Source: Candidatus Berkelbacteria bacterium
GTDB lineage: Bacteria; Patescibacteriota; UBA1384; 2-12-FULL-50-11
Direction: 5' to 3'
DNA length: 64,000 nucleotides
NCBI GenBank assembly: GCA_016432625.1
Contig: CP066697.1
Coordinates: forward strand, 392,409-456,408
In this document: in pieces, positions 10,225 through 64,000 of the stretch
How the letters are laid out: each line of letters begins with the position of its first letter
Position numbering within the stretch: position 1 is the stretch's first letter
Translations under genes and position numbers: made by a program
Notes under the pieces: generated by a model
The model's input: the letters and a program-made list of their open reading frames with translations, nothing else
What the model was told of the DNA's origin: nothing
The model's database searches: none

Positions 10225-12732
10225 ATGAGCAGAGAATTTAACGCTTTTGACAGACTCAGCGAAACGGCTCAGAAAATAATCCACGACTCTGAGGCGATTG
10301 CCCGTTCGATGGATACCGGCATCAATACCGAGCATATTCTCGCGTCGTTGGCGAACAACCCTGGGACAATCTCTTATGATGTCTTGCGAGAGTTGATGAT
10401 CAGCCCGGAGCGGATTTCTTTCGTACTCCATAACCGCAACGCCAACTTAAAACCATCGTACGGCATGTCGCCCGACATAACTCGTATCCTCAAAACCGCA
10501 TTTCAAAAAGCGTATTCATACGGGACTGCCTCCGTCGATACTGAGCACCTATTGCTCGCCATGACCCTAACCAAGGACTGTAACGCTTATCAAGTTTTAA
10601 GTGAGTTAGATATCGATCCAAAGATCCTACGCGACCAGCTAGAGCAGTATTTCGAACAGCTCCGCGCCGGTGAAGAGCAAGGAGCAAGTGAACATGAAGA
10701 AGGCGCTGAGGGAACGACGCCAGAGACTCAACTGCCGCAGTACCCACAAGAACTAACTCGGGGCGGGGGACAGAGCAAGGCGAAAAGTGCCATCGATTAC
10801 TTTACAACCGACCTAACCAAGATGGCCAAGCAGAACAAGCTTGACCCAACAATTGGCCGCGACAAAGAGATGCGACGGATGATTCAAATATTGATTCGCC
10901 GGATGAAAAATAACCCAGTTCTAGTTGGCGAGCCAGGAGTAGGAAAGACCGCGATTGTCGAGGGTTTGGCAACGAGAATCTCCCGAGGCGACGTGCCACA
11001 ACAGCTCTCTGATAAACGAGTTCTGAGTCTCGACTTAGCCTTACTAATTTCTGGTACGACCTATCGGGGCCAATTTGAGGAGAGAGTTAAGAAGCTTGTT
11101 GATGAGATTATTAAAGCCGGCAACGTCATACTCTTCTTAGATGAAATTCATACTATCGTTGGCGCTGGCGCTGCCGAGGGCTCAATGGACCTCGGGACCA
11201 TCTTTAAACCCGCCTTGGCACGCGGCCAACTACGCTTAATTGGCGCTACAACCCTTGATGAGTATCGTAGATATATCGAGAAAGACCCGGCGCTAGAACG
11301 TCGGTTACAACGGGTTGTCGTTGAAGAGCCCTCAGCCGAGGAATCAGTAAGAATACTCGATGGCCTACGCCAAACTTACGAGAAACATCACAGCGTCACG
11401 ATTGATGCCGACGCAATTGCCGCGGCCGTTGAGCTCGGTAAGCGCTACATCAACGATCGTTTCCTGCCCGATAAAGCCATCGACCTGATTGACGAGGCTG
11501 CGGCCGCAACTCAGCTTGAGAGTAATCAGCTGAAAACCTCGAACAAACTCCTTCAACTGGAAGGTGACCGAAAGAAGGCGGTTGATGAGCATAAGCTCGC
11601 CGCGGAGAATTTTGATTACAAAAAAGCCGCCGAATGGCGTGTTCTCGAACTGCGCCTAAATAACGAGATTGAAAAACTAAAAGGCAAACTGCCTAAGCGA
11701 AGTAAGCCCCGCGTCATTACCCGCGAGGATATTGCTCAAATCGTCTCGATGTGGACTGGTATTCCGGTTACCGCTCTTAACCGAGCCGAGAAAATACGCC
11801 TGCATGACCTGGAGAACGCGCTTCGAAAGCATATTATCGGCCAGGATGAGGCGATTCAATCGATAGCTCAAGCGATCAAGCGCTCAGGCGCCGGTGTCGC
11901 CGATCCGAACCGTCCACTGGGCTCGTTTATTTTCTTAGGCCCAACTGGGGTAGGGAAGACTGAGCTAGCTAAAGTGCTGGCACGTGAAGTTTACGGTCGC
12001 GAAGAGGCGCTCGTCAAAATTGATATGAGCGAGTTCATGGAGCGCCATAACGTTTCACGTCTCGTCGGTGCGCCGCCCGGATACGTCGGCTACGAGGATG
12101 CTGGCAAATTAACTGAAACCATCCGTCGCCAGCCATACTCCGTAGTTCTTCTTGATGAGATTGAGAAAGCTCATCCAGATATCTTCAATATGTTGCTACA
12201 GATTATGGAAGACGGCTACCTGACCGACGCCAAGGGTCGCCGCGTCAACTTCCGTAACACAATCATTATCATGACCTCGAATATTGGCATGGCTGAACTT
12301 AACCGACAGGCAGCAATTGGTTTTAAGGTTGGAAAAGAAGCCGATGTTAACGCCCGGTACGAGGAGATAAAGTCGCAGATTAACGACAAGCTAAAAGAGA
12401 ACTTCCGTCCTGAATTTCTTAACCGGCTCGACCGAGTCGTGGTCTTCCGACCGCTTTCCAGCGAAGACGTCAGCAAAATAGTTCAAATCCAAATCGACAA
12501 GCTTTCCAACCGCTTGCTTCCAGAAGGCATCCAGATAGCTGTTGAGGAGTCGGCTCGTGAGTTCCTAGCCGAGAAGGGTTTCGACCCGCAATTTGGTGCT
12601 CGTCACGTTAGAAGGGTTATCACTGAATACATAGAAGATCCGCTTTCCGAGCTGTTACTGAGCGGCAAACTGAACAAAAAGTCGCCGATCCGCGTTTTAC
12701 GTAAAGGCGCAAAATTGACCCTGGTAAAATAA
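10225..12732 (+). CDS. clpC: ATP-dependent Clp protease ATP-binding subunit ClpC (AAA+, two NBDs)
   Basis: Clp_N repeats. Walker [14 protein letters not shown] and [17 protein letters not shown]-like [13 protein letters not shown] ClpP-docking loop (AAIGFKVG). 835 aa. Confidence 0.85.
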
Positions 12733-13208: not shown

Positions 13209-13504
13209 CGACTTTATCCCTCGCGACCCTCACCGAGTCCCCCGTCAATTCTGGCGGGGGCTCATTTTTTTATCTAATTTCGGAGTTCGTTCGGTTTTAC
13301 ACTTTTCCACAGTTTCTTGGTTAAGTTTCGGCTTGTGTTTGGGGATAAGCCGCGAGTGAACACAGCGGCGCACCACAGTGAACGGGAAAAGTATAATTAC
13401 CCCCCCCCTCGACTTTTCACCGTGAACGAGGACTTCCTTATATAACTGCCGCCTTATCAATAAGGTTTGAAAGAGGGCCGCCAGATTGGCGGCCCGTCCA
13501 TGGG

Positions 13505-15768: not shown

Positions 15769-15858
15769 AATTGCTGTCTCCGGTTTCCAGAACTGGAAAG
15801 TACGTTGGACAATTATACAACGAATCTTGTCCGAGATTAAGATTTCCGCCTCTTGTTT

Positions 15859-15874
15859 TTCGGTTTTTGTTCGC
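15859..15874 (+). promoter_or_regulatory. LexA-box-like operator in the divergent plsX/dinB intergenic region
   Basis: ctcTTGTTTTTCGGTTTTTGTTCGCcttagatagaagtATG (TTTC-N7-GTTC, one mismatch in the first half-site). Confidence 0.6.
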
Positions 15875-15887
15875 CTTAGATAGAAGT

Positions 15888-17150
15888 ATGCGCAAGATAC
15901 TTCACGTCGACATGAACAGTTACTTTGCGACGATGGAGCAGCAAGCTTACCCCAATTTGCGAGGGCTACCGATCGGCGTGGCTGGCAAGGGTAGGGGAGA
16001 GCGAACAGTCGTAACCGGCGCCTCGATTGAGGCTAAGCGTTACGGCGTTAAATCAGGTATGTCCACGTGGGAAGCCTTGAGGCTTTGTCCCGGGCTAATA
16101 ATCGTTCCAGCGTGTTATGACCGCTACATTTTCTCCTCAAAACGGATTTTCGCTCTGCTCGAACGTCTCAGCCCAACAATTGATGTTTTCTCGATCGACG
16201 AAGCGTTTGCGGACCTGGGGGAGGATATAACCTGGGAAGAAGCTGCCAAACTTGCCCAGCAGTTTAAAGCACTAATAAAAAGCCATATCGGGTCGTGGGT
16301 AACCTGTTCGATCGGTATCTCTTACGGTAAAACACTCGCCAAACTCGCCTCGGAGCTAAAAAAACCTGACGGCCTGACCCTTGTCCGTCCTGAAGATTTT
16401 GCGGCTATCGCCGAAAAGACTGCCATTGAGGAGCTCTGCGGTATCGGCTATCGTTTGCGGCCTAGATTGAATCAGATGGGTATTTTCACGATCAAAGAGC
16501 TGGGGGATATGCCAAAAAATATGCTACTAGAAGCTTTCGGAGAGTTTACCGGCACTTGGCTGCATAATATTGGCAACGGCATCGACAACAATCTTTTGCG
16601 TTCGTTTCGCTCCTTGCCTCAGGAAAAATCAGTCGGCCACTCTTACACCTTGCCACAAGACGTTCATACCTTAGGAGAAGCTAAAAAGGTTTTATTGCTG
16701 CTCAGCGAGCGAGTCGGCGTCCGTTTGCGCCGCAAAGGCTTGATCGCCCGGGGTGTGGCGGTTTATCTGCGTTTTTACGACCGAAGCGGTTGGTCTAAAA
16801 GTGCCTTGCAAAAAAGCTTTTTTAATGACGGACGAGAGATCTACCAAGCCGCCGAGCAATTGCTCGAAATATTCAACAACTCCATCAAACCGGTTCGCCT
16901 CGTCGCCGTGACGGCCACAAACCTGGTACAACAGACCGAAATAACCCAGTCTTTATTCACGGAGGATAAGGAGTACGAGGAGTTAATTCGAGCCGTAGAT
17001 AAGGTTAACAACCGCTACGGCGAGTTTACGGTGTTCCGGAGCAGCTTAGCGACAATCAAACGGAGGATTTTCAACTTGCCCGACGGTCGTAATAAACGGA
17101 TCTACTTGCCACAAATAACTGAAGTGAATCCGTTTACTAAACGGATCTAA
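15888..17150 (+). CDS. dinB: DNA polymerase IV (Y-family translesion polymerase DinB)
   Basis: MRKILHVDMNSYFATMEQQAYPNLRGLPIGV matches E. coli DinB MRKIIHVDMDCFFAAVE. SIDEAFADL, AKLASELKKPDG. Confidence 0.9.
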   Translation: MRKILHVDMNSYFATMEQQAYPNLRGLPIGVAGKGRGERTVVTGASIEAKRYGVKSGMSTWEALRLCPGLIIVPACYDRYIFSSKRIFALLERLSPTIDVFSIDEAFADLGEDITWEEAAKLAQQFKALIKSHIGSWVTCSIGISYGKTLAKLASELKKPDGLTLVRPEDFAAIAEKTAIEELCGIGYRLRPRLNQMGIFTIKELGDMPKNMLLEAFGEFTGTWLHNIGNGIDNNLLRSFRSLPQEKSVGHSYTLPQDVHTLGEAKKVLLLLSERVGVRLRRKGLIARGVAVYLRFYDRSGWSKSALQKSFFNDGREIYQAAEQLLEIFNNSIKPVRLVAVTATNLVQQTEITQSLFTEDKEYEELIRAVDKVNNRYGEFTVFRSSLATIKRRIFNLPDGRNKRIYLPQITEVNPFTKRI

Positions 17151-17222
17151 CCGACTACCACACCCTTTCCAAGCCACTAATTGCGCGGTATGCTACCCCC
17201 TGCCTGAAAAGGAGTTCCTTCT

Positions 17223-17849
17223 ATGCCGACTGATACTGAACTTGCTCGTCCATCAGATTCCGCCAAGGTTTTGAAGATCGTGCGGAACACGCCCGGTCAA
17301 AAGTACCTCATTGGCGAAGTTAACAACCTGTTTGTTGCGGCAGCGGTTCGCGAGAGCGACGGCCAGCTGCTCATCTGCCAGATGCCACACGAGGCCAACA
17401 ACAACTTGCGAGGTGCCCCGGTGCTGCCAGCTGTACGCACCGACACACCCGCACTGAACGGCGCCGCACTGCTCGCGGCACACCTCAACGACTCTTTCGG
17501 TCTTGAGGCATTTCCGATCCAACCGATCGGACACCACATCAGAACTGGCCAATGCCGGTTCCACCCTGAGGGCCCGCGCGACGTCTTTCACACCTTCTGG
17601 ATCTGCGTGATCGAGGGGGACCAGGACATCCGAAGGCTCTACGGCTACCAGTGGGCGAACTTTTGCCGTCCAAAAGACTTTCGAACGCTCGTGCACGCCG
17701 GTGGTGTTCCAACAGAGGGCATTCTCGACCAGATCGAGTTCAACAACCTTGGCGTCTCCGCCGACCGTCACCCCTTCGACGTTCTAAGCAACATCGCCAA
17801 ATACGCCGAATCCATCCACGACGGCGAGCTACTCAAGTCTATCTTGTAG
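17223..17849 (+). CDS. Hypothetical protein (208 aa), locally GC-rich
   Basis: AAAAGGAG RBS. ~60% GC against ~48% background. No recognisable motif. Lies between dinB and lexA. Confidence 0.45.
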   Translation: MPTDTELARPSDSAKVLKIVRNTPGQKYLIGEVNNLFVAAAVRESDGQLLICQMPHEANNNLRGAPVLPAVRTDTPALNGAALLAAHLNDSFGLEAFPIQPIGHHIRTGQCRFHPEGPRDVFHTFWICVIEGDQDIRRLYGYQWANFCRPKDFRTLVHAGGVPTEGILDQIEFNNLGVSADRHPFDVLSNIAKYAESIHDGELLKSIL

Positions 17850-17960
17850 GGCTCGTCCCAACTTCACGAAAGCCGCCTGGAATTATCCAAGCGGCTTTCT
17901 CCGCATTCAGATCGCCAACAGATACTTGTTGTCGAGGTACATGTAAGTGCTATTGACACG

Positions 17961-17976
17961 TTCGGTTTTTGTTCGC
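17961..17976 (+). promoter_or_regulatory. LexA-box-like operator in the lexA promoter (autoregulation)
   Basis: ctaTTGACacGTTCGGTTTTTGTTCGCtacgttagtactaacATG. Confidence 0.65.
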
Positions 17977-17991
17977 TACGTTAGTACTAAC

Positions 17992-18597
17992 ATGTTAACA
18001 CCAAAGCAAAAGCAGATCTTAGATTTTATTGAGAGTTTTATTGATGAGAACGGGTACTCACCAAGTTATCGAGAGATCGCTGAACATTTCGGCTTCTCTT
18101 CGGTCGCGACCGTCGCTGAACATGTCGAGAATTTACGATTAAAAGGCTACTTGTCCAGCGAAGCCGGTTATCGTTCACTCCAGGTAAAAGAAGTCGCCGT
18201 TGAGCCAGACTCAGGTTTTGACGTTTTGAATATTCCGCTTATGGGCGCGATTCAAGCCGGAAAGCCGATTGAGGCGATCCGGACCAGCGAAACTCTAGAG
18301 ATTCCCCGCGATATGATGGCACGAAACGTTTTTGCCCTGAGGGTAAAAGGTGACTCGATGATCGATGATGGTATTTTAGACGGTGACTATGTTGTAGTTG
18401 AGCCGTGCCAGAGCCCCAAAAATGGTGACATCATTGTCGCCTTGATAGATAAAGACGATGTAACGCTAAAGCGCTTTTATCGGGAAAAGGATCACATACG
18501 TTTGCAGCCAGCCAACAAGAAGTACCAGCCAATTCGAGTTAAAAAAGTAACGATTCAAGGTAAGGTGCGAGGTGTCATTCGAAAATTTCGCGGTTAA
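17992..18597 (+). CDS. lexA: LexA repressor (S24 peptidase)
   Basis: N-terminal winged HTH (GYSPSYREIAEHFG). Ala-Gly cleavage site (AIQAGKP). GDSMIDDGILDGDYVVV (Ser) and TLKRFYRE (Lys) catalytic dyad. ATG at 17992 inside a longer ORF. Confidence 0.9.
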   Translation: MLTPKQKQILDFIESFIDENGYSPSYREIAEHFGFSSVATVAEHVENLRLKGYLSSEAGYRSLQVKEVAVEPDSGFDVLNIPLMGAIQAGKPIEAIRTSETLEIPRDMMARNVFALRVKGDSMIDDGILDGDYVVVEPCQSPKNGDIIVALIDKDDVTLKRFYREKDHIRLQPANKKYQPIRVKKVTIQGKVRGVIRKFRG

Positions 18598-20022: not shown

Positions 20023-20145
20023 ATGTTAGGTCTAACTCCACCAACAAGTTACGCCAACCAACGAGTCGGCGTTTTCACTGCGAGCAAACCTTCGCGAGAA
20101 GAAAAACGCTGCAACGAGTCAAGAGGGAATAAATGCTCGGTTTGA
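20023..20145 (+). other. 40-codon uORF whose first 18 codons duplicate the NYN gene N-terminus
   Basis: MLGLTPPTSYANQRVGVF is encoded twice, at 20023 and 20133, with 11 nucleotide differences that are all synonymous. The uORF then diverges and stops (TGA) 13 nt after the main ATG. Confidence 0.4.
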
Positions 20146-20660
20146 CACCTCCGACAAGTTACGCGAATCAACGCGTCGGCGTTTTTATCGATATCCAGAA
20201 CATGTACTACAGCGCCCGGGCGATGTATGACAGCCACGTCAACTTCGGCAAAATACTTGAGCACGCCGTTAACAAGAGGCAACTTATTCGCGCTATTGCT
20301 TACGTCGTTCGTTCAGACGCGCCGAAGGAGCAAACTTTCTTTGACGCTTTGGAGAAAGTCGGCCTAGAGATCCGTTCTAAAGACATCCAGATTTTTCCCG
20401 GTGGTGAAAAGAAAGGCGACTGGGACGTTGGCGTTGCCGTTGATGCAATTAAAATTGCTGACCGTCTCGACGTGGTTGTTTTGGTCACCGGCGACGGAGA
20501 TTTCTTACCGCTGGTCACATATCTCAAGGAGAATAAAGGGTGCCGCGTTGAAGGCATCGCGTTCGGTCGTAGTACTTCTTCCCGGCTAATCGAGGCTCTC
20601 GATCACTTTTACGACCTGGACGCAAACGCTAAAGATTATTTGATCAAAACGAAACACTAA
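20133..20660 (+). CDS. NYN/LabA-like domain protein (DUF88)
   Basis: VGVFIDIQNMYYSARA, VVLVTGDGDFLPLV are LabA/NYN nuclease-fold motifs. Confidence 0.7.
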   Translation: MLGLTPPTSYANQRVGVFIDIQNMYYSARAMYDSHVNFGKILEHAVNKRQLIRAIAYVVRSDAPKEQTFFDALEKVGLEIRSKDIQIFPGGEKKGDWDVGVAVDAIKIADRLDVVVLVTGDGDFLPLVTYLKENKGCRVEGIAFGRSTSSRLIEALDHFYDLDANAKDYLIKTKH

Positions 20661-44868: not shown

Positions 44869-47838
44869 TTATAATTCGTCAATTGGCTGCAGGCCTGAAT
44901 CAGTTGGTTTAGATGTCGCTTTACTCTCGTTCGTCAGGCCTAGGGTCTCGGCTTGATCCCAGGTTATTAAGCGATCTTGGGCACTTTGTTCGATGTCTCC
45001 CCTACTCCAATCATCGCCGCCAGCTTTTTTCTGCTCGCTCTCCCCTATTTCCTGGGCGATGTGCTTCTCGATAATTGGGGCTGTTTCTTCAGCAATAACG
45101 CCTTCGCGAACAGGCGGAGTAACCACAACGTCCCGCACCTGTTCAACTGGTGAGGGGTCGACGTCGTTTTCAACCTGTCCATCAGGTTCATTTTTTAGCT
45201 CACCGCTGCCAGTGACGGCGTACCAATTGCGACTGAAACGGTCTTTTAGAATCTCAATCTTCGAGCCTTTTGGTAGTGACGGCGTCGTCTCTTGCTCGGG
45301 CTTTTTGGCGACATTAGTTGGTTCTGCGTTAGCAAAACCCTTGTCCTGAGGTGTCACATTACCCGGACCGGCCAACGTCACGGTACTACCTTCCCCGGCC
45401 GCCTTGCCAGCTTCAACCGCGCTCAAGTCAATCGGCGCTGACCACTCGGCGATATAATCTTCAACGTCTGTTTTAGACATACTGAATTGCTCGCGGCTGG
45501 ATTCTACCACCTGGCTCACTACGTCCGTTTTATCCGCCGGCGGCGGTAAAGTGTTGGCGGAAAATGCCGGCGCCGTAACGCCGTCGATCGCCATCTTAAT
45601 ATAGATCTGCCTATTTGGTAGATTAACTAAATCGTTGACGTCAAATACCGGCTCAAACTCACTCTTCATTGCCTCGGCGTCGTTCGATCCGACACGGAAC
45701 GAGACCATTGTTCCGACGTTGCCAAAAACCGCATCGCGCACTGTCTCCGGCATCTGAGCGATATATTGGTTGACCATGACAAGATTGAGGCGATACTTGC
45801 GCGCTTCACTGAGGATTGTGGCGAAAGAATCCGTGGCAAAGTTCTGAAACTCATCAACATACAAATAGAAGTCTCGCCGATCGGCCTCGGCAATACGTGT
45901 TCGTCCCATCGCCGCTAACTGAATCTTTGTTACTAACATCGAACCAAGCAAGGCCGAGTTATCCTCGCCGATTTTTCCGGTCGACAAATCCGCCAGTAAA
46001 ATCTTGCCGTTATTCATGACTTCATCCATACGCATTGTTGATTTCGGTTGACCAACAATATTACGGATGGTTGAGCTTGAGAGAAATTGACCGACTTTAT
46101 TTTGAATCGGCGCAATCGCTTCTTGGCGGAATTTTGGTTCGTATTTTTCGTACTCATTAACAAAGAAGTCGCGAATCACCGGGTCCTTCACTTCATTAAT
46201 AACTAAGCGGCGGTAAGAATTATCCGTTAGGATCCGCATCACGCTAAGTAGCGTCGAGTTGGGATACTCGAGCACTGCGAGAATTGAGTTGCGCAGGATG
46301 TATTCAAGACGCGGCCCCCAAGATTCGCCGAAGATTTTTTTGAAGATACCGACGACGCCGGAAGCGATGACGTTCTTCATTTCTGGGTTGTTGTCGAAGT
46401 TCTCCAGGACGTTAAAGCCGACCGGAAACTCGTGATCAGCCGGGTTAAAGTAAACCACGTCGGGGATTCTATCGGCGGGCAAGAAGGCTAATACGTGATC
46501 AATAAGCTCGCCGTGCGGATCAACAACCGCCACGCCTCGCCCTTCCCGGATATCATCGTAAATCATATTCTCGATAAATGTGGATTTTCCTGTACCCGTT
46601 TTACCGATAATGTAAGCATGCAGCCTCCGGTCATGTCGTTTAATGCCGAATTTTGTGATGTTATTACGGAAATTAGTCTGGGCAAGCACTGTTAAGTCGT
46701 CGGCTGGCACGCTACCGAGAACAGGCAAGTTAGAGGGCGGTTCCCCTTTCTTCGCTCCAGCCCAAGCAATGGTTGGCGTCGATACAGTTTCAGAAGGAAA
46801 GTGATAAAGCGTTGCGAGCTCCGTAATGTTGAGAATAATGTCCCTATCCCCCATCGCCCGGTGTTTAAATAGGTCCAGGACGCTGCGGTCGGTAACCATG
46901 TCTTTAACGATGAAGGCGTTTAGATTGAGCGTATTGAACTGCTTATAGGCCCCGACGACTTGTTCTAGCTTGGCTTTAGCAACATGTTCTTCACTAGCCG
47001 CGGCAAGAATACGGACATTAGCCTCGAACCCAAGCTTGGTGATTTTTTCCTCAATCGCTTTTATCGCCTGCTGCTCTGGCCCGCCGAGTTCGTTGTCCTT
47101 CTTGTCTTCCTTCTTTTCCTCCCCGCCCCCCTCGGGCGAGATGATTTGCTTAAAGAAGCCGACAAATAATTCTTTGCTTTCATTTACGAGTAGCTCAGTG
47201 ACACCCTTTGGTTTTTTAGGTGGTTCTTTGAGGTTCTTCACTTCATCACGCCCTAAGTCCTGCCAGTCATCATCAGCAGGACGAACAATGGTTTGGATCC
47301 AAACTTCTTCATCACCCGTTAAGCTGCTTAAGACTCCCGTGGTCGTAGCGAGCGGATCAACTTCGAAGTTAAGAAACGTTTTAATTGGGAAAGCTGTCGG
47401 CCGCTTTAAAGTTAACTCAGTGGCAACGAACCGCTTCTCTTCCGGCAGAGTAACGTAGTCTTCCTCCGGCCCGATTTCTTTGATTTCAATATTAGGGTAT
47501 TGGGCAAAGATCTGACTAACAACAAAATCTTTTAGATTAGCCGGAACGTAGACAAAGAATGTAATGCTCTGCCGGCGCGAGACAATCTCCAGGCTGATAC
47601 GTGGTTGCTCGGTAGCACCCTCCCTAAAAATTCCGTGTAGGGCAGCAAAGAATTGCTCTGCCGCCTCAGGCTTAGCAGTGTTATTCTTAGGTACCGAAAG
47701 TGAGAGTAAGGTATATTCATCGAGACCGCCAGGCCAGCTTTCCTTGGAGCTGCTGCCTTTACTTGTCCGTTTCCAAAGCCATACGGCTCCAACAATCAGT
47801 AAAGCGCTGAAGACAAGATTAATCACCACAAACGTCAT
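44869..47838 (-). CDS. Membrane-anchored P-loop ATPase, TraG/VirD4/TrwB coupling-protein-like (paralog 1, 989 aa) with a long acidic disordered tail
   Basis: N-terminal TM. Walker A HAYIIGKTGTGKST. VAVVDPHGELID and VVYFNPADHEFPVGFNVLE match the coupling-protein DPKGE / fnP..NPL pattern. Walker B FYLYVDEFQNF. Confidence 0.55.
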   Translation of the reverse strand: MTFVVINLVFSALLIVGAVWLWKRTSKGSSSKESWPGGLDEYTLLSLSVPKNNTAKPEAAEQFFAALHGIFREGATEQPRISLEIVSRRQSITFFVYVPANLKDFVVSQIFAQYPNIEIKEIGPEEDYVTLPEEKRFVATELTLKRPTAFPIKTFLNFEVDPLATTTGVLSSLTGDEEVWIQTIVRPADDDWQDLGRDEVKNLKEPPKKPKGVTELLVNESKELFVGFFKQIISPEGGGEEKKEDKKDNELGGPEQQAIKAIEEKITKLGFEANVRILAAASEEHVAKAKLEQVVGAYKQFNTLNLNAFIVKDMVTDRSVLDLFKHRAMGDRDIILNITELATLYHFPSETVSTPTIAWAGAKKGEPPSNLPVLGSVPADDLTVLAQTNFRNNITKFGIKRHDRRLHAYIIGKTGTGKSTFIENMIYDDIREGRGVAVVDPHGELIDHVLAFLPADRIPDVVYFNPADHEFPVGFNVLENFDNNPEMKNVIASGVVGIFKKIFGESWGPRLEYILRNSILAVLEYPNSTLLSVMRILTDNSYRRLVINEVKDPVIRDFFVNEYEKYEPKFRQEAIAPIQNKVGQFLSSSTIRNIVGQPKSTMRMDEVMNNGKILLADLSTGKIGEDNSALLGSMLVTKIQLAAMGRTRIAEADRRDFYLYVDEFQNFATDSFATILSEARKYRLNLVMVNQYIAQMPETVRDAVFGNVGTMVSFRVGSNDAEAMKSEFEPVFDVNDLVNLPNRQIYIKMAIDGVTAPAFSANTLPPPADKTDVVSQVVESSREQFSMSKTDVEDYIAEWSAPIDLSAVEAGKAAGEGSTVTLAGPGNVTPQDKGFANAEPTNVAKKPEQETTPSLPKGSKIEILKDRFSRNWYAVTGSGELKNEPDGQVENDVDPSPVEQVRDVVVTPPVREGVIAEETAPIIEKHIAQEIGESEQKKAGGDDWSRGDIEQSAQDRLITWDQAETLGLTNESKATSKPTDSGLQPIDEL

Positions 47839-50258
47839 CGTGTAGAAAGCGCTCTTGAGGCCGTACCCACACTCTGACTTTCAAAAACTACTGGGGATTT
47901 GGCAAAAGTTGAGCGAGTATTATTGCGGATCCAATCGGCCATTTGTTTACTGCCTTCGTTAGGACTTTTGACACCGTTCATACTAAAGGGTTTGGTTGGT
48001 GCCAAATCAACCAAAAGCTTAACATATGCCTGGAAACGATCAAGGTTGGTAAGGTCTTCTGCGGTGACTCCGGGCAATTCATGCGACAGGAACTCAGCAT
48101 CATCGGCACCAATTCGATAGCTAATCAGGGTGCCGACGTTCCCGATCACAGCGTTACGAATTTGCTCAGTTAGTTGGGCGAAATATTGGTTGGTAATATT
48201 TAAATTAAGTCGGTATTTGCGAGCCTCGGCCAGAATAGTTGCAAATGAGTCGGTCGTGAAATTTTGAAATTCATCAACGTATAAATAGAAGTCTCGTCTT
48301 TGATCCTCTGGCACATCAGCTCTACCGAATGCCGCAACCTGTAATTTAGAGACCAAAATCAGCCCCAGTAAATTAGAGTTAATTTCACCAATTTTGCCCT
48401 TGGCTAAGTTCACAAATAGAATCTTGCCAGAGTCCATCATCTCGCGGAAATTAAATGACGACTCTTTCTGGCCGATGATGTTGCGCATCAGTTCGTTCGT
48501 CATGAACCGACCGAATTTGGAGATAAAGTAGTTATACATTTCCGACTTATGAAAATCGGCCGTTTTGGCTAGTTGCTGTTCCCAGAATGCTTTGACGACA
48601 GGGTCGGTCACTTGCGAGACAGCGTAACTTCGAAAGGCGTCGTCGGTAAACAGCCTAGGAATATCGATTAGTGTTCCGCCGCCGGGCAGGCTCATGACGG
48701 TTAAGGCGGCGTTACGTGCCCAGTGTTCCCATTGTGGTCCAACGATTCCGGTGCGATTTGGGTCGAATAATTTGTAGAAGATTTCGATTACTTCTTGAAT
48801 TAGAAAATCCTTTTCTTCGGGACGTGAGTATTCAAGTAGGTTTAGGCCTAACGGATAAGACGTATCAGACGGGTCGAAAAGTACAACGTCTTTCGCTCGT
48901 TCGGTCGGTACTTTTTTGATCAGTTGCTCAATCGCATCACCCAGCGGGTCAATAAAACATAACCCCTTACCTTGGTACATATCCTGCTCAATCATACTTT
49001 CAAACAAGGTTGTTTTACCGACGCCGGTTTTACCAATCATAAACACGTGGCGCCGCCGATCGTCTTCTTTCAAATGAACCATAGTGGTCGCCCCGCGATA
49101 GTTCGTTTCACCAATTACCACGCCATCACTGGGCAAATCTGCTGGCGGCGGCAGACTTCGCGAGAGTTGCCATTTGACCCCGGGCGTTTCGAGCGCTCTC
49201 GTTGGCAGATGGAAGATACTGGAGAGCTCCTCGGCGTTTAGAATCATTTTTGGAGCGTTGGAAAACATTCGAAATAAATAATCGCGTCCCAGACGATTCG
49301 GCGCGATAATGCGGTACTTCAAGGAGTTAAATTCCGCCGCATGGAATTGGGAGAATGCAGCAATTATGACTTTTAGATTGCTCTCAGCAGACGATTCGTC
49401 CTCAGCGGTAGTCAGCACTCGCAGTATCGCTTCGAAGCCAACCTTAGCGCCCTTTTCCTGCAAGGCCTTAATTAGCTCTTCTTGCTGAGATGAGAGGTGG
49501 ATCTTCTCCCTAACGTCGCCTTGCGGTTTAGCCTGATCGAAGACTAAGCCAATCGCACGGCCGATGCGACTTCGCCCAACAAGATGAGCCCGATTCTGTA
49601 GAACTTCCTGTCCAGCCATGTGTGTATGGTGACGCCAGCGCTCGTTAGTTGGGCGGATCAGGAGTTGGATGCTTGCCGTTTCATCACTCTTCATTTTCGT
49701 TAGGGCGTTTGTCAGCGCCGAAAGCGGATCGGTTTCTAGGTATTGATAGGTCTTTAGCGGCAAGACGAAACTTTTTGACTGTTCAAATACGGCACCCGCC
49801 ACGGCTTTAGCGTGTGGCCCAAAAAGCTTAGGCGGCTTGTTCGAACTTACTTCAGCGTGCGGAAAATAGCTGTGCAGTTGTCGCTCGACTATATTCTTTA
49901 TTCGCTTTGGGCAAACGATCGAAAAATGGATAACACCACCGACCGCTGTTACTTCAAAAGAGATATGCGCCGGTGTACTGAAAAGCCAGTCAACAAAATT
50001 ACGTTGATGGATGATTGTGGTCAACGACGAGTAAAACTGCTCCATTGGGGCGATAAGATCTTTGAAATCTTTTACTGGCTCGCCAGAAACAGGTTGAGTG
50101 GCATCTCGCGGCAACGAGACAGTTAGGCACACCAAAGAATTAACATCTCTAACCATCTCTTGTTTTTGGGCACGTAATAGGTAGAACATCAAGCCAATCG
50201 GTAGCCCGACAACAATAATTCCGATTGCCCAGACCAAGTAGTTACCTAGGAACTCCAT
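47835..50258 (-). CDS. Membrane-anchored P-loop ATPase, TraG/VirD4/TrwB coupling-protein-like (paralog 2, ~807 aa)
   Basis: Same architecture: HVFMIGKTGVGKTT, LCFIDPLGDAIEQ, VVLFDPSDTSYPLGLNLLE, FYLYVDEFQNF. ATGA overlap with paralog 1. Start taken at MEFLGNYLVWAIG. Confidence 0.55.
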   Translation of the reverse strand: MEFLGNYLVWAIGIIVVGLPIGLMFYLLRAQKQEMVRDVNSLVCLTVSLPRDATQPVSGEPVKDFKDLIAPMEQFYSSLTTIIHQRNFVDWLFSTPAHISFEVTAVGGVIHFSIVCPKRIKNIVERQLHSYFPHAEVSSNKPPKLFGPHAKAVAGAVFEQSKSFVLPLKTYQYLETDPLSALTNALTKMKSDETASIQLLIRPTNERWRHHTHMAGQEVLQNRAHLVGRSRIGRAIGLVFDQAKPQGDVREKIHLSSQQEELIKALQEKGAKVGFEAILRVLTTAEDESSAESNLKVIIAAFSQFHAAEFNSLKYRIIAPNRLGRDYLFRMFSNAPKMILNAEELSSIFHLPTRALETPGVKWQLSRSLPPPADLPSDGVVIGETNYRGATTMVHLKEDDRRRHVFMIGKTGVGKTTLFESMIEQDMYQGKGLCFIDPLGDAIEQLIKKVPTERAKDVVLFDPSDTSYPLGLNLLEYSRPEEKDFLIQEVIEIFYKLFDPNRTGIVGPQWEHWARNAALTVMSLPGGGTLIDIPRLFTDDAFRSYAVSQVTDPVVKAFWEQQLAKTADFHKSEMYNYFISKFGRFMTNELMRNIIGQKESSFNFREMMDSGKILFVNLAKGKIGEINSNLLGLILVSKLQVAAFGRADVPEDQRRDFYLYVDEFQNFTTDSFATILAEARKYRLNLNITNQYFAQLTEQIRNAVIGNVGTLISYRIGADDAEFLSHELPGVTAEDLTNLDRFQAYVKLLVDLAPTKPFSMNGVKSPNEGSKQMADWIRNNTRSTFAKSPVVFESQSVGTASRALSTR

Positions 50259-50259
50259 A

Positions 50260-50553
50260 TTAGGCACCGGTATCCATGACCTGCCCAACGCGATCCTCTA
50301 AATCAGACAGGCTTGCTACTGCAATATTGGCGTCGATTTCGTTTTCCAAAAATGGGGTAACAGCCTCAGTATTAACCGTCGGCTCAGGTCCGTCCTTATA
50401 TTCCACACTCCTGGGAGCAGGTCCAACTTCAGCCGGTACGTAACCACTAACAGCTTCAGGCGGCTTTGCTTCGGACACAACAGGCTTAACCTCACCAGGT
50501 GAGAATGATTCATTAGACGTTCTTAACTCAAAGCGTTCCCCCTCGCGCTGCAT
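50260..50553 (-). CDS. Small acidic Pro/Glu-rich protein (97 aa), first gene of the ATPase operon
   Basis: Low-complexity sequence. Abuts the ATPase start. Confidence 0.35.
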   Translation of the reverse strand: MQREGERFELRTSNESFSPGEVKPVVSEAKPPEAVSGYVPAEVGPAPRSVEYKDGPEPTVNTEAVTPFLENEIDANIAVASLSDLEDRVGQVMDTGA

Positions 50554-60563: not shown

Positions 60564-61487
60564 TTAAAGCGAGTTTAGATCTATTGAAACGGAAGGGCTG
60601 ATACTGGCCGACAGATGAGCCGTCTCGATCCGTGATTTAGGTAGGGTCGCAAAAATTGCGCGAATGTTTTCCAGCAGTTTTGCGTCGTCCCAAGAGACTT
60701 TGCCAACAATTTGGTGAACTTGGTTCTGGGCGTCAATGCGGTACTCGACTTTGCCAGCGTTGATTTCTTCGATGGTTTTCTTTGGGTCGTTAGTAACCGT
60801 GCCGGATTTCGGATCGGGCATTTTGCCTTTAGGGCCGAGAATTTTGGCAATTTTACCAACTTTAGGCATCAACTCCGGCGAAGCTAAGGCGATATCAAAA
60901 TCAATCCTTTTGGTCTTGGCGATCTCTTCTATTTTGTTTTCATCTAGAACAATAATATTTTTTTGTTTGCCTGAACCGTGCGGCAGATGGAACAAGCCTT
61001 TCGGTGATTCAGAAACGACTTTGCCCTTCTTCTTGATAAGTTTTAGGTGCACCTCAATCGAGCCGTCAAATTTACTTAAAGAAACTTTCTTAACTAACGT
61101 CACTGCTTCGTCTAGCGGGTAACGCTTGCCAGCTTCGACTTGATTCTTTGCCTGGTGGTATTTTTTGGAGCGTAGTTTTGCCTTCTTAGATACGACCTTT
61201 TTACTCTCGGTTTTCTTAGCGCCCTTTTTCGTTGCCGGTTCGTTTAGTTCTTTGGCAATCTCATTGTCAGTATTAATCGCCGCGATCTCGGCAGGAATAT
61301 CAGCATCAACATCAGCGCCTTCCTCGGCCGCTAAGCCCTTCTCCGCCTCTTCGTCGGGGCTTGAAGCCGCCTCGTCTATCGAGGCTTCGCTGTGGTGGCG
61401 ACTTAAACCTTCGGCTTCCCGTTCGGAATCCTTCTCGAGTTCAACCGGATTATCGTCCTGTACTGTCTTGGTGTTTTTCTTTGGCAT
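60564..61487 (-). CDS. rplA: 50S ribosomal protein L1 with a ~115-aa N-terminal acidic/Lys-rich extension
   Basis: The core KRYPLDEAVTLVKKVSLSKFDGSIEVHLKL aligns with the uL1 N-terminus. The first 38 nt overlap pth. Confidence 0.75.
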   Translation of the reverse strand: MPKKNTKTVQDDNPVELEKDSEREAEGLSRHHSEASIDEAASSPDEEAEKGLAAEEGADVDADIPAEIAAINTDNEIAKELNEPATKKGAKKTESKKVVSKKAKLRSKKYHQAKNQVEAGKRYPLDEAVTLVKKVSLSKFDGSIEVHLKLIKKKGKVVSESPKGLFHLPHGSGKQKNIIVLDENKIEEIAKTKRIDFDIALASPELMPKVGKIAKILGPKGKMPDPKSGTVTNDPKKTIEEINAGKVEYRIDAQNQVHQIVGKVSWDDAKLLENIRAIFATLPKSRIETAHLSASISPSVSIDLNSL

Positions 61488-62025
61488 TGAATGTTATCGC
61501 TGATAGATTTTGTTCGTCAATTGATTGTATCAGGTAGGAAACCACTCGGTCAATGACAGAGCCTAACTCTTTTTCTTCCTCCTCCGTAAACGGCGCCAAG
61601 ACGTAATCAGCTAATTCTACAAATTTCGCGTCCCTGCCAACACCAACACGAATCCGCCAATATTCCGGGCCGATTGCCTCGTCGATGGATTTAATACCGT
61701 TGTGCCCTCCACTTGAGCCGCCAAGTTTCACGCGAACTTCGCCAAAAGGAATTTCGACGTCATCGTGGATGACCCAAATATCCTCGTGGTCTAAGCCGTG
61801 CTTTTGTTTGATTTTATTTGCGACAACTCCCGATTCGTTAACGTAGGTGAGCGGCTTCAAAATCTCAACGTCGCCACTCTTGAAATATTGGGCCGGTATA
61901 TAACCACCCTCGTTAAATTCCCCGTGGAGTTTGTGAACTAAAGCCTCAACAATCCGGAAACCGATGTTGTGACGGGTTCTGTCGTACTTACGGCCAGGAT
62001 TGCCTAAGCCAATTATTGCTTTCAT
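61450..62025 (-). CDS. pth: Peptidyl-tRNA hydrolase
   Basis: MKAIIGLGNPGRKYDRTRHNIGF. Confidence 0.9.
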   Translation of the reverse strand: MKAIIGLGNPGRKYDRTRHNIGFRIVEALVHKLHGEFNEGGYIPAQYFKSGDVEILKPLTYVNESGVVANKIKQKHGLDHEDIWVIHDDVEIPFGEVRVKLGGSSGGHNGIKSIDEAIGPEYWRIRVGVGRDAKFVELADYVLAPFTEEEEKELGSVIDRVVSYLIQSIDEQNLSAITFNAKEKHQDSTGR

Positions 62026-62106
62026 TTATTCGCGATCCTCCCCATCGCTTAAGAGGACGAGGATGCCGATAACGACAACTACGCCCACAATCACTAGGGA
62101 AAACAT

Positions 62107-62418
62107 TTACATACCTGGGAAGTTGAAGTCTTTTAAGATCGGCTGTAAACGCGCGGCGGACTCGCTCTGCGCTTTGGCCATCGCTTGGCCGATCGTGTCT
62201 TTAAGGTTGCTTTCAAGCTGATTTTTATTGCCAGCGTCGAGCGCCTCATCGGCGATAGTTATCTCGACTATTTTCATCTCACCGTTCACGATGACGCCAA
62301 CAGTACCGTCAGTGGAGCGGGCTTCGATCTCTAAATTTTTGAGTTGTTTCTGTACATCCTTTGCCTTTTTCTGCAATTGGTACATGTCTTTCATTTGTCC
62401 GAAACTTGGTAATGCCAT
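62107..62418 (-). CDS. ybaB: Nucleoid-associated protein YbaB/EbfC
   Basis: MALPSFGQMKDMYQLQKKAKDVQKQL...GLPFDPGM-like C-terminus (FNFPGM). Confidence 0.85.
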   Translation of the reverse strand: MALPSFGQMKDMYQLQKKAKDVQKQLKNLEIEARSTDGTVGVIVNGEMKIVEITIADEALDAGNKNQLESNLKDTIGQAMAKAQSESAARLQPILKDFNFPGM

Positions 62419-62485
62419 GAATTCCTTTCTTTGTTAGTAGTGCGCTCGCTTCTTACGAAATGCTAGGAGCAATTTTAGCATTTCC

Positions 62486-62572
62486 CTAAGCTTCCGTTCG
62501 GCAGTTGTCGATTGTCCACCGGACATTCGACATTTGCTGCCTCATCATCTGTCCGAAACTTGGTAATGCCAT
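62486..62572 (-). other. 28-codon uORF formed by a duplicate of the ybaB 5' end
   Basis: The 23-mer tgtccgaaacttggtaatgccat occurs at 62396-62418 (the ybaB start) and again at 62550-62572. The upstream copy encodes MALPSFGQMMRQQMSNVRWTIDNCRTEA*. Confidence 0.3.
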
Positions 62573-62599
62573 ATTTTCCTTTCTGAGTTAAAGCAAACT

Positions 62600-63592
62600 C
62601 TACCTGTAATTGATTTTACCTTGTGCGACGTGCTTTCGGTAGGCCTCGAGGAAAGGCTCGATCTCGCCGTCCAAGATATCTTGCACCGCCGAAGTCTCGT
62701 AGCCACTCCGCAGATCCTTAACCAACTGATACGGCTGTAAGACGTAAGAACGGATTTGGTTGCCCCATGAAGCTAAGACGGGTTCGCCGCGATGCTTTTG
62801 TTCTTCAGCTCGGTGCTTCTCGTCGTCGAGCAGTTGTAGTTTACCTTGTAGAATTTTTAAGGCCTGGTTTTTGTTTTGAAGCTGAGACCGTTCGTTCTGG
62901 CACGTCACAACGATCCCCGTCGGAAGGTGAGTCAAGCGTACGGCTGAGTCAGTAGTGTTAACGCCCTGTCCGCCGTGACCACCAGCTCGGTAAACATCGA
63001 TCTTTAATTCATCCGGTTTGATCGCTAATTCGCTGCGCTCAATTTCAGGTACTACTTCGACTAAGGCAAACGAGGTGTGCCTGGCCTTATCGGAATCAAA
63101 TGGACTAATGCGAACCAAACGATGCGTGCCATTTTCGCCTTTAAGCCGCCCATACGCTCGGAAACACTGAATGAAAAGGGTCGCGTTTTTAATGCCGGCC
63201 TCCTCGCCTTCGACACGATCAAGCAGTTGAACTTTGCAGTCAGCTTTTTCGGCGTATCGCATGTACATTCGCAAGAGCATTTCAGCCCAGTCCTGAGCTT
63301 CGGTACCGCCGGAGCCGGCGTGAACCGACAAGAAAGCTGAAGAATTGTCATGGGCGCCTGTGTACGTTGCTTCATCCTCAAGTTCCTCAAGCTCAGCTTC
63401 TGTTTCTGCCAGATCAAACCGCAAGATAATATCGTCTAAATGTTTCAGCTCTTGCGCGGTCTTGGCAGCACGTTCGTGATCCTCCCAGAATTTAGGATCG
63501 GCCATTTCCTGCTGAATTGCCGCCATCCGTTCACGCTTGGATGAGATATCTAAAATTGCGTCCAGTTCTTTTTTGCGATCGTCAGTGGCCAT
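62600..63592 (-). CDS. prfB: Peptide chain release factor 2, uninterrupted (no programmed frameshift)
   Basis: SPF tripeptide (RISPFDS). GGQ motif (HGGQGVNTTDSAVRLTHLPTG). Confidence 0.8.
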   Translation of the reverse strand: MATDDRKKELDAILDISSKRERMAAIQQEMADPKFWEDHERAAKTAQELKHLDDIILRFDLAETEAELEELEDEATYTGAHDNSSAFLSVHAGSGGTEAQDWAEMLLRMYMRYAEKADCKVQLLDRVEGEEAGIKNATLFIQCFRAYGRLKGENGTHRLVRISPFDSDKARHTSFALVEVVPEIERSELAIKPDELKIDVYRAGGHGGQGVNTTDSAVRLTHLPTGIVVTCQNERSQLQNKNQALKILQGKLQLLDDEKHRAEEQKHRGEPVLASWGNQIRSYVLQPYQLVKDLRSGYETSAVQDILDGEIEPFLEAYRKHVAQGKINYR

Positions 63593-63636
63593 GTGTTTAT
63601 TTTATCCTGTTACCTTTTACTTAAAAATGCCTAACA

Positions 63637-63665
63637 AAAAACACCCTTTCGGGTGTCTTTTGTTT
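63637..63665. terminator. Bidirectional terminator
   Basis: AAAAAACACCCtttcGGGTGTCTTTTGTTT. Confidence 0.5.
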
Positions 63666-63675
63666 CTTGGCCTAG

Positions 63676-64000
63676 TTAGGCAAGAAGAGCGGCTTCCTTC
63701 TTAGCAAGCATAAGCTTGCGAAGACCGGCAGCAGCGACAGCAGCTAAGCCAGCAAACAGGTAGATTTCTCCACCGGCTTTAGGCAGGCTGGTTGTCTTTT
63801 CAGCAGCAACCTTGGTGGTCACGCAGTTAGCGTTCGCACGGGCAGCAGCTGAAGAGCTAGCCGAAGCAGAAGCAGCGGCGGCAGCAGCAGCGCTTGAAGC
63901 GCTTGTGCCTGGGCAGTTCTGGAGGCTAGTAACCGTTTGGTTACCAGTTGAACCAGAAGCAGCCGCAGCGGCGGCAGCAGCGGCAGCGGCGTTTGAGCCA
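63676..64000 (-). CDS. C-terminus of a probable cell-wall-anchored surface protein (5'-partial)
   Basis: Ala/Ser-rich low-complexity region, then LPKAGG, a hydrophobic helix and an RKLMLAKKE tail. A sortase gene is present at 3748. Confidence 0.4.
   Translation of the reverse strand, partial: GSNAAAAAAAAAAASGSTGNQTVTSLQNCPGTSASSAAAAAAASASASSSAAARANANCVTTKVAAEKTTSLPKAGGEIYLFAGLAAVAAAGLRKLMLAKKEAALLA

Follow-up and report, generated by a model that had tools for sequence, protein, structure and literature searches.

A conserved, structured 108-nt element between two copies of the ybaB start in a Candidatus Berkelbacteria genome

The ybaB locus and its duplicated start

We analyzed a 64-kb stretch of DNA (the window, part of the 768,791-bp contig CP066697.1) from a metagenome-assembled genome (MAG) of Candidatus Berkelbacteria, a genome of 0.77 Mb, in which the beginning of ybaB is present twice and the two copies enclose 108 nt of other sequence. 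These 108 nt belong to a conserved, structured and previously undescribed family of two-hairpin elements of approximately 95-115 nt. The gene order on the minus strand is prfB, a gap of 181 nt, ybaB, a 26-codon hydrophobic open reading frame (ORF), pth and rplA. The features that concern the duplication are as follows, with Shine-Dalgarno sequences abbreviated as SD and the upstream ORF as uORF.

62600-63592, minus strand: prfB (release factor 2, 330 aa), the upstream neighbor, with its stop codon TAG at 62600-62602; from the ORF list, with Pfam PCRF and RF-1 domains on the identical gene of assembly L001
62545-62590, minus strand: distal copy of the repeat, with SD AGAAAGGAA at 62576-62584, ATG at 62570-62572 and exact core at 62550-62572
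62486-62572, minus strand: uORF of 28 codons, MALPSFGQMMRQQMSNVRWTIDNCRTEA, reading MALPSFGQM followed by MRQQMSNVRWTIDNCRTEA, with stop codon TAG at 62486-62488
62391-62436, minus strand: proximal copy of the repeat, with SD AGAAAGGAA at 62422-62430 and the functional ybaB ATG at 62416-62418
62107-62418, minus strand: ybaB/ebfC (103 aa), intact and full length, with a Pfam YbaB_DNA_bd domain and end-to-end alignment with 31 homologues

The first-pass annotation of this DNA described an exact 23-nt copy of the ybaB ribosome-binding and start region, 154 nt upstream of the original, that opens an ORF of 28 codons beginning with MALPSFGQM. A repeat search and the ORF list bear this out: the sequence TGTCCGAAACTTGGTAATGCCAT is found at 62396-62418 and at 62550-62572 with a spacing of 154 nt, and the first nine residues of the uORF are those of YbaB. 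The description needs adjustment in one respect. The exact 23 nt comprise the ATG and about 7.7 codons, so that the start is copied exactly, whereas the ribosome-binding site lies only in an imperfect extension of the repeat to 46 nt (87% identity, 62391-62436 against 62545-62590), which includes AGAAAGGAA. After its ATG the distal copy continues with eight further ybaB-type codons and the first base of the tenth, and its final ...ATGA ends at 62545.

When the whole window was scanned in six frames for start peptides that occur twice within 800 nt, exactly two cases emerged, ybaB and a NYN gene at 20023/20133, and with only two such cases a chance origin is negligible. Positions 62000-63700 were matched base for base in the Logan assembly of run SRR12113407 (L001), and a duplication created by one assembler is therefore unlikely.

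Sequence, structure and distribution of the element

The sequence between the two starts consists of the following parts.

62437-62544, minus strand: conserved 108-nt element, beginning TGAGG and ending GCGAGCGCACTAC; matched by covariance model R1 at 62437-62550 with 104 bits
62500-62541, minus strand: hairpin A, with outer helix GGCAG/CUGCC (62537-62541 with 62500-62504) and compensatory changes in 8 of 13 pairs across six copies
62491-62500, minus strand: motif CGAACGGAAG between the hairpins, identical in all six copies and mostly unpaired, with three bases paired in the consensus fold
62448-62491, minus strand: hairpin B, a stem of about 15 bp (GCUU.GGGAAAUGCUA / UAGCAUUUC..AAGAAGC) with a conserved loop start AAAAU and covariation
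62443-62450, minus strand: conserved 3' motif AGCGAGCG, in which CGAGCG is invariant

Model R1 was built from five copies, which it recovers at 72-118 bits. The consensus reads RUGAG, hairpin A, CGAACGGAAG, a long hairpin B with a loop starting AAAAU, and GCGAGCG. In a model-based alignment of six copies 94% of the cells are paired and 11 of the 21 pairs have changed on both sides; none of 500 shuffles reached these values, and slid controls pair at 31-42%. Hairpin B provides examples of such covariation (AUGC/GCAU, GCGC/GCGC, ACGC/GCGU, AUUGC/GCAAU), and RNAalifold independently lengthens it to about 15 bp, where compensatory changes are seen once more, and places a GAA/GAG internal loop inside an invariant CG/CG closing pair. 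Folds of single sequences reproduce the consensus and also agree on an inner, extended stem of hairpin A (62521-62532 with 62506-62517, apex GUCC-GGU-GGAC). The sense and antisense strands fold about equally well, and folding energy consequently does not separate RNA from single-stranded DNA.

Between genomes the element is 72-79% identical, compared with 58-67% for the ybaB coding sequence and 32-43% for its third codon positions. The copy in the window matches that of locus L018 (positions 2018-2124) at 79% over 108 nt and that of locus L011 at 78% over 81 nt. The insert holds no conserved ORF. Terminal inverted repeats are absent, the six copies having at most 6-11 complementary bases among the 20 at their termini, without a consistent pattern. 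No Rfam 15 model, the set including hammerhead, twister, pistol, hatchet, 5S, SRP and ribosomal-protein leaders, matched at E up to 10 in 62300-62700, and none matched over the element in L011, L018 or a third locus, L046. A derivation from 5S rRNA was considered and rejected: there are loop-C-like (CCGAAC..GAAG) and loop-E-like motifs, but alignments to the 5S sequences of L046 and E. coli are not significant.

The start-peptide scan was repeated on 33 ybaB loci fetched from GTDB genomes. Locus L011, from a Patescibacteria MAG whose YbaB is 68% identical to that of the window, displays the same architecture, with ATGGCCATACCAAATTTTGGACAAATGA present twice at a distance of 149 nt. A blastn search with the window's spacer revealed L018 (YbaB 58% identical), in which two start copies lie 154 nt apart around the same element. 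Both genomes thus carry the duplicated first nine ybaB codons and the element at the position it has in the window, and the L018 sequence is found exactly in an independent ENA assembly (L047). Judged by the identity of RF2, Pth, L1 and YbaB, L011 and L018 are further from the window than are loci L002-L010, from all of which the element is absent according to R1. The site is empty in L002 (YbaB 91% identical), L003 (84%) and L004 (82%), where the ybaB ATG follows the prfB stop codon by 27, 11 and 12 nt and the sequence runs uninterrupted as ...GGACA(G/A)ATGAAAGAC...; it is the distal copy of the window that occupies the position of the native ybaB start in these three relatives. The first-pass annotation had named comparison with relatives as a check and absence of the upstream copy from all of them as the outcome that would count against it. 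The distribution turns out to be patchy: the nearest relatives lack the copy and two distant ones carry it, which is not that outcome.

Other copies lie outside ybaB. Weaker blastn matches led to a Berkelbacteria contig (L019) with two copies within 2.2 kb, one at rplJ/rplL and one in tgt. The former overlaps the 3' end of rplJ, and the L10 reading frame terminates inside it, about 40 nt upstream of rplL. The latter is in frame and free of stop codons, and Tgt has 24-29 extra residues at exactly this place compared with five orthologues. Besides this element-derived insertion, the same protein (10253-11503) has a second one, of 10 residues around TMPNEEGIEKPV, relative to the five orthologues. 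In L046 the element is situated directly downstream of the 5S rRNA gene (Rfam, 1252-1369), within a partial duplicate of the 5S 3' region; its left flank of 24 nt is 75% identical to 5S, and its right flank is an exact 13-nt copy, GTAGACCGACGCC. Upstream of the same 5S gene, whose duplicated ends lie at 1158-1288 and 1327-1507, there is a separate partial duplicate of the 5S 5' end without the element, 78% identical and 80 nt upstream of the original, with a spacer of 41 nt. The contig also contains a group I intron in the 3' part of its 23S rRNA gene (185-445; Rfam, 87 bits). In total there are four insertion contexts (ybaB, rplJ/rplL, tgt and 5S), and all six distinct copies are oriented in the sense direction relative to the host transcript. 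The view of the first-pass annotation that the duplicated start is a recurring phenomenon and not a coincidence is thereby strengthened, given the same architecture in L011 and L018, the partial 5S end duplicates in L046 and a NYN duplication that is real.

Beyond these, R1 found no convincing further copy in 566 kb of related loci, other ybaB loci included; the remaining matches score below 20 bits, and those in L012, L010 and L024, which were examined as candidates, look like noise. A strict 20-base pattern, run against 241 million metagenome records, gave two true matches (L047 and L046) and one chance match. The window holds one strong copy in its 64 kb, and no second copy of the spacer occurs in it. 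A weak R1 match (18.7 bits, E = 0.0014 in a window-only search) is located in an intergenic region at 13340-13434 on the plus strand; in it GGGAUAAG and then CGCACCACAG are each followed by a hairpin, and it may be a relative that has degenerated.

Origin of the arrangement

A tandem duplication of 154 nt predicts that the spacer at 62437-62544 should derive from the 3' end of prfB or from ybaB beyond its first nine codons. When the spacer was aligned semi-globally with the 3' end of prfB and with downstream ybaB, the scores were no better than those of shuffles, and the same holds for the spacer of the NYN duplication. Short tandem duplication, one of the two mechanisms offered in the first-pass annotation, is therefore not what the 108-nt spacer reflects. 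The spacer was also considered as an inverted copy of the start region and rejected, since the similarity is not significant at the DNA level.

The reading we favor, with a probability of roughly 0.5, is that the sequence is a small non-coding insertion element, that the flanking gene-end duplication keeps ybaB intact, and that the uORF is a by-product. The element would have arrived by insertion, mobile or recombinational, and come to rest within the 5' end of ybaB, directly behind codon 9 (with ...CAG ATG A on one side of the junction and TGAGG... on the other). The original ribosome-binding site and nine codons would have been left upstream of it, where they open a short orphan ORF that stops inside the element. 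On its 3' side a second SD sequence and the same nine codons would have been joined to the gene body, such that YbaB is made at full length from its own start. The repeat first noticed would accordingly represent a gene-end duplication flanking an insertion. The duplication may have arisen together with the insertion or been selected as a gene rescue, the near-identity of the copies may be due to gene conversion or to recency, and any effect on ybaB expression would be incidental.

Rickettsia palindromic elements (RPEs), REP/BIME, Correia/CREE and ERIC sequences are non-coding elements of approximately 100-150 nt with conserved hairpins, found in intergenic regions and co-transcribed with their neighbors, and in-frame RPE insertions that are translated occur in protein-coding genes as well. 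The window's element resembles the RPE and REP type in being short, non-coding and hairpin-structured. As expected for that type, its hairpins are kept by compensatory change, and the family occurs at unrelated loci (four contexts), including in frame within a coding sequence, where the tgt copy recalls the RPEs. Unlike RPE, REP, Correia and ERIC sequences, it has a very low copy number, no terminal inverted repeats, an exclusively sense orientation and long adjacent gene-end duplications in two of the four contexts (ybaB and 5S), and it bears no sequence or Rfam relationship to them. A fixed short target-site duplication, as in a miniature inverted-repeat transposable element, was not found; the flanking repeats measure 28-46 nt at ybaB and 13 nt plus a diverged 24 nt at 5S, and no flanking repeat was detected at the tgt or rplJ/rplL copies.

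A second precedent is prophage e14 in icd, where gene-end duplicates flank the insert and differ mainly at synonymous sites (PMC13626634), like the NYN copies discussed below. As with e14 and phage 21 in icd and with tRNA-targeting islands, there are two gene-end copies at ybaB, one functional and one an orphan fragment, and the replacement end preserves the gene, YbaB being full length. Those insertions, however, are kilobases long and carry an integrase, whereas the inserts here are 56-108 nt without an ORF, and here the 5' end is targeted, so that the replacement must supply an SD sequence and a start codon. Insertion of IS1634 and IS1549 generates direct repeats of 8-514 bp by an unknown mechanism (PMC2266710). 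The likeness lies in long target duplications of variable length, and these elements are known from small-genome bacteria (Mycoplasma), but they are autonomous, 1.5-2 kb long, and equipped with a transposase and terminal inverted repeats, none of which is seen here. None of these precedents matches fully, given the lack of inverted repeats and of an enzyme, the few copies, the sense-only orientation and the occurrence at the same site three times.

Several observations weigh against an insertion element. Besides the missing terminal inverted repeats, no transposase, reverse transcriptase or integrase was found in the 64-kb window among ORFs of at least 90 aa outside the locus. Copies are very few, as the two true matches in the metagenome scan illustrate, and searches of viral contigs, phage records and plasmids yielded none. 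The element occupies exactly the same site in three genomes, which requires a strongly site-specific process or else a single old event and many later losses. A useless insert of 154 nt between direct repeats of 23-28 nt should be lost quickly from a genome of 0.77 Mb. Furthermore, a functional RNA would account just as well for the strong conservation and for the exclusive sense orientation.

Another adverse observation is the similarity of the start copies within each genome. The distal and proximal 28-nt coding copies agree at 27 of 28 positions in the window, 28 of 28 in L011 and 25 of 28 in L018, where all three differences fall in codon 2. Distal and proximal codons share lineage-specific substitutions (AGT for Ser5 in both copies of the window and also in the element-free L002-L004; GCC, ATA and TTT in both copies of L011), whereas the non-coding sequence beside them in the repeat has diverged, in the window much more than the codons. 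Without gene conversion such sharing is not expected of a neutral orphan. In the window 3 nt separate the proximal SD from its ATG; there is a comparable SD-like purine tract in L018 and a different one in L011. The 26 nt that precede the proximal ATG of the window (CGCACTACTAACAAAGAAAGGAATTC) closely match the corresponding tail of L018 (score 15, a value as high in 0 of 2000 shuffles), and this similarity of the SD-bearing tails is far above that of either tail to the distal upstream region of its own genome. The pattern requires one of two accounts: either a single old insertion, in which the coding repeat has been homogenized by gene conversion or selected, or an element equipped with an SD tail of its own that inserted site-specifically more than once. 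The comparison rests on three genomes, and three do not separate the two.

The strongest alternative, although we consider it unlikely, is that the element serves the prfB-ybaB-pth-rplA transcript as a functional, cis-acting RNA module, for example a protein-binding, processing or stabilizing structure. The duplicated initiation region would then be a decoy or a coupled start, the uORF and hairpins would together set the expression of ybaB (and of downstream genes), and selection would keep the distal start identical to the real one. In favor of this, the element is better conserved than the neighboring protein-coding gene, its covarying stems surround invariant unpaired motifs as in protein- or ligand-binding RNAs, and six of six copies lie in the sense direction within transcripts of expressed genes. 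In three genomes that are deeply diverged, the identity between the nine distal codons and the proximal nine is 89-100% despite divergence of the adjacent non-coding sequence, and the insert persists despite its flanking direct repeats. A regulatory RNA role for the element is thus possible. However, the element is absent from most relatives with the same operon, and a leader function is not conceivable for the copy within the tgt coding sequence or for the one that follows the 5S gene.

A leader-peptide regulatory design was the second mechanism suggested by the first-pass annotation, and it is not supported; the negative findings that follow also count against the module. The window's uORF crosses hairpin A and terminates in the 5' strand of hairpin B, that of L018 stops in the 3' strand of hairpin B and that of L011 stops 2 nt before the real ATG. 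With lengths of 28 codons in the window, 48 in L011 and 40 in L018, the three have only the nine duplicated codons and Met10 in common, after which the element is read in different frames; neither length, frame nor key codons are conserved among the carrier genomes. The leader of the window folds well (z = -2.9), and the complementarity between its spacer and the start region is unusually high (matched by 2 of 500 shuffles), but it is at chance level in L011 and L018. Attenuator-like pairing of the start region with the spacer was rejected on this basis, together with predicted accessibilities that show no pattern and no consistent masking of the proximal ybaB start. No promoter- or terminator-like site was found between prfB and ybaB, and a protein-level search with the L018 uORF peptide gave no candidates. 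A short ORF with its own SD ahead of a gene and beside stable hairpins does recall trpL-type attenuation and ermCL/tnaC-type arrest peptides. In contrast to those, peptide, frame and stop are not conserved here, there is no terminator and no conserved alternative pairing, and elements of the same type are also found where no downstream gene could be regulated. The uORF is most likely the orphaned original gene start and not a designed leader peptide.

A quite improbable alternative is recombination with a related lineage, by homology-facilitated illegitimate or unequal exchange, which would have placed a foreign-type 5' region and the element beside the resident one. The two copies would then be diverged orthologues brought together and not an in-place duplication. 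Part of the evidence for it comes from the companion case.

20023-20186, plus strand: duplicated start of the NYN gene, with the distal copy at 20023-20076, an unrelated 56-nt spacer at 20077-20132 and the proximal copy at 20133-20186

The two NYN copies are 110 nt apart. The distal one opens a uORF of 40 codons (20023-20145) that overlaps the NYN start and ends 10 nt past the NYN ATG, and a new, strong SD (AAGAGGGAATAA) belongs to the proximal copy. The copies agree in each of their 18 residues, while 11 of the 54 nucleotides differ and all 11 differences are synonymous; of 200,000 random sets of 11 substitutions, none preserved the peptide. Both copies therefore evolved under selection at the protein level, either in one genome or in two before joining, and such differences are those expected of two orthologous starts under selection. 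The route through two genomes, with orthologous ends subsequently joined, has been observed for icd/icdC around e14, a locus with the same signature (PMC13626634). The NYN duplication is absent from the related loci L040, L041 and L043, with gaps of 49, 23 and 67 nt against 132 nt in the window, and the distal copy together with its upstream sequence matches the native arrangement of L040. The N-terminus of the NYN protein is variable among orthologues. On reading, and without statistics, the translated spacer is faintly similar to an in-frame upstream extension of protein P0082. For ybaB itself, recombination would agree with the proximal tail being far closer to that of L018 than to its own distal upstream region.

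Against recombination, both ybaB copies carry substitutions of the host clade (AGT at Ser5, as in the element-free L002-L004) and so look resident, no donor arrangement was found, and the copies at tgt, rplJ/rplL and 5S are left unexplained. Import of a foreign NYN gene was rejected, the divergence profile between the window and L040 being without discontinuity. The NYN and ybaB cases share an outcome, an orphan start upstream of an intact gene, and need not share a cause. The 56-nt NYN spacer does not belong to the element family, as it has no R1 match and blastn finds no relatives; it and the spacer upstream of the L046 5S gene were rejected as family members for want of an R1 match. These two spacers both open with CTGCG(G)AGCA...GAGCAAAC, a candidate resemblance. 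Upstream of the NYN duplication (15771-18597, plus strand) are a Y-family (DinB/ImuB-like) polymerase and LexA, the latter two genes from the duplication and the polymerase two further genes beyond LexA.

It is very unlikely that the element is an intervening sequence handled at the level of RNA or translation, whether self-cleaving, spliced, RNase-processed or bypassed by ribosomes, with the direct repeats marking equivalent take-off and landing or junction positions. The sense-only orientation and the compact conserved fold would suit this, the GAUGAG...CGAAC junction is loosely reminiscent of a hammerhead core, an in-frame copy in tgt would be harmless if removed, and removal of one repeat together with the element restores the ancestral ybaB mRNA exactly. 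Yet even with the threshold at E = 10 there is no match to a ribozyme or intron model of Rfam, and the hammerhead interpretation of GAUGAG-helix-CGAAC was rejected on reading, the core positions C3, G5, A6 and the A15.1-U16.1 pair not being conserved and no helix I being drawable. Moreover, ybaB has its own strong SD and ATG after the element, which makes bypassing or splicing unnecessary, and the stop-free tgt copy can simply be translated. The structured non-coding gap within a coding region and the matching sequences at its edges resemble programmed bypassing in T4 gene 60 and the mitochondrial byps; in contrast to those, the part beyond the gap starts here from an SD and ATG of its own, the gap measures 154 nt, and bypass signals were not found.

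Finally, a plain and partly decayed tandem duplication of the ybaB start, or an assembly artefact, is scarcely credible: the direct repeat has a short period and MAG assemblies can create local duplications, but the spacer is unlike the sequence expected from a 154-nt tandem duplication, the independent Logan assembly is identical, and the architecture recurs in two other organisms, one of them assembled twice independently.

Wider meaning and neighboring observations

Genomes of the Candidate Phyla Radiation are tiny and streamlined. A conserved, covarying element of about 100 nt at gene ends would represent a new class of genome feature for these bacteria. Sites of this kind give rise to spurious small ORFs, make intergenic gaps larger and can lead start-site annotation astray. 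The ybaB locus provides a natural case of a conserved or essential gene that tolerates an insertion within its first codons. It also illustrates concerted evolution in a translation start of 28 nt, and it adds a candidate structured RNA in which the junction nucleotides are invariant and for which the partner may be a protein, a nuclease or a mobilizing enzyme. Known insertions in Candidate Phyla Radiation bacteria are mostly introns of rRNA genes, with none of at least 100 bp in 5S (PMC11270868).

Extending the insertion reading, we can sketch a more speculative proposal, which we think rather doubtful. A portable structured RNA module would enter gene ends, and its insertion would regenerate the displaced end ("self-healing"), possibly via an RNA intermediate because the orientation is sense-only; the regenerated end may be an SD with the first codons or an rRNA terminus. 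In a variant, the host would have co-opted the element with its start as a decoy, an initiation region whose identity with the real one would be maintained by gene conversion or selection. The 18 identical residues with 11 synonymous differences at NYN could indicate that peptides mimicking an N-terminus are themselves under selection.

Some further features of the window were recorded. The prfB gene (62600-63592, minus strand) is a single ORF of 330 aa with no upstream frame-0 ORF in the approximately 50 nt before its ATG, and it appears to be without the programmed +1 frameshift that is usual for this gene and without the ~25 codons with which a typical RF2 begins. The gap between ybaB and pth is exactly filled by a strongly hydrophobic ORF of 26 codons (MFSLVIVGVVVVIGILVLLSDGEDRE; 62026-62106, minus strand); it is similar in size in L002-L004, and in L011 ybaB abuts pth. 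The rplA gene (60564-61487, minus strand, L1 of 307 aa) overlaps the end of pth by 38 nt and has an N-terminal extension of about 90-130 residues, the first ~90 of which are acidic and of low complexity; the same kind of extension is present in L011. Two adjacent large genes (989 and 817 aa) at 44869-50288 on the minus strand have weak matches to VirD4/TraG/TrwB coupling proteins.

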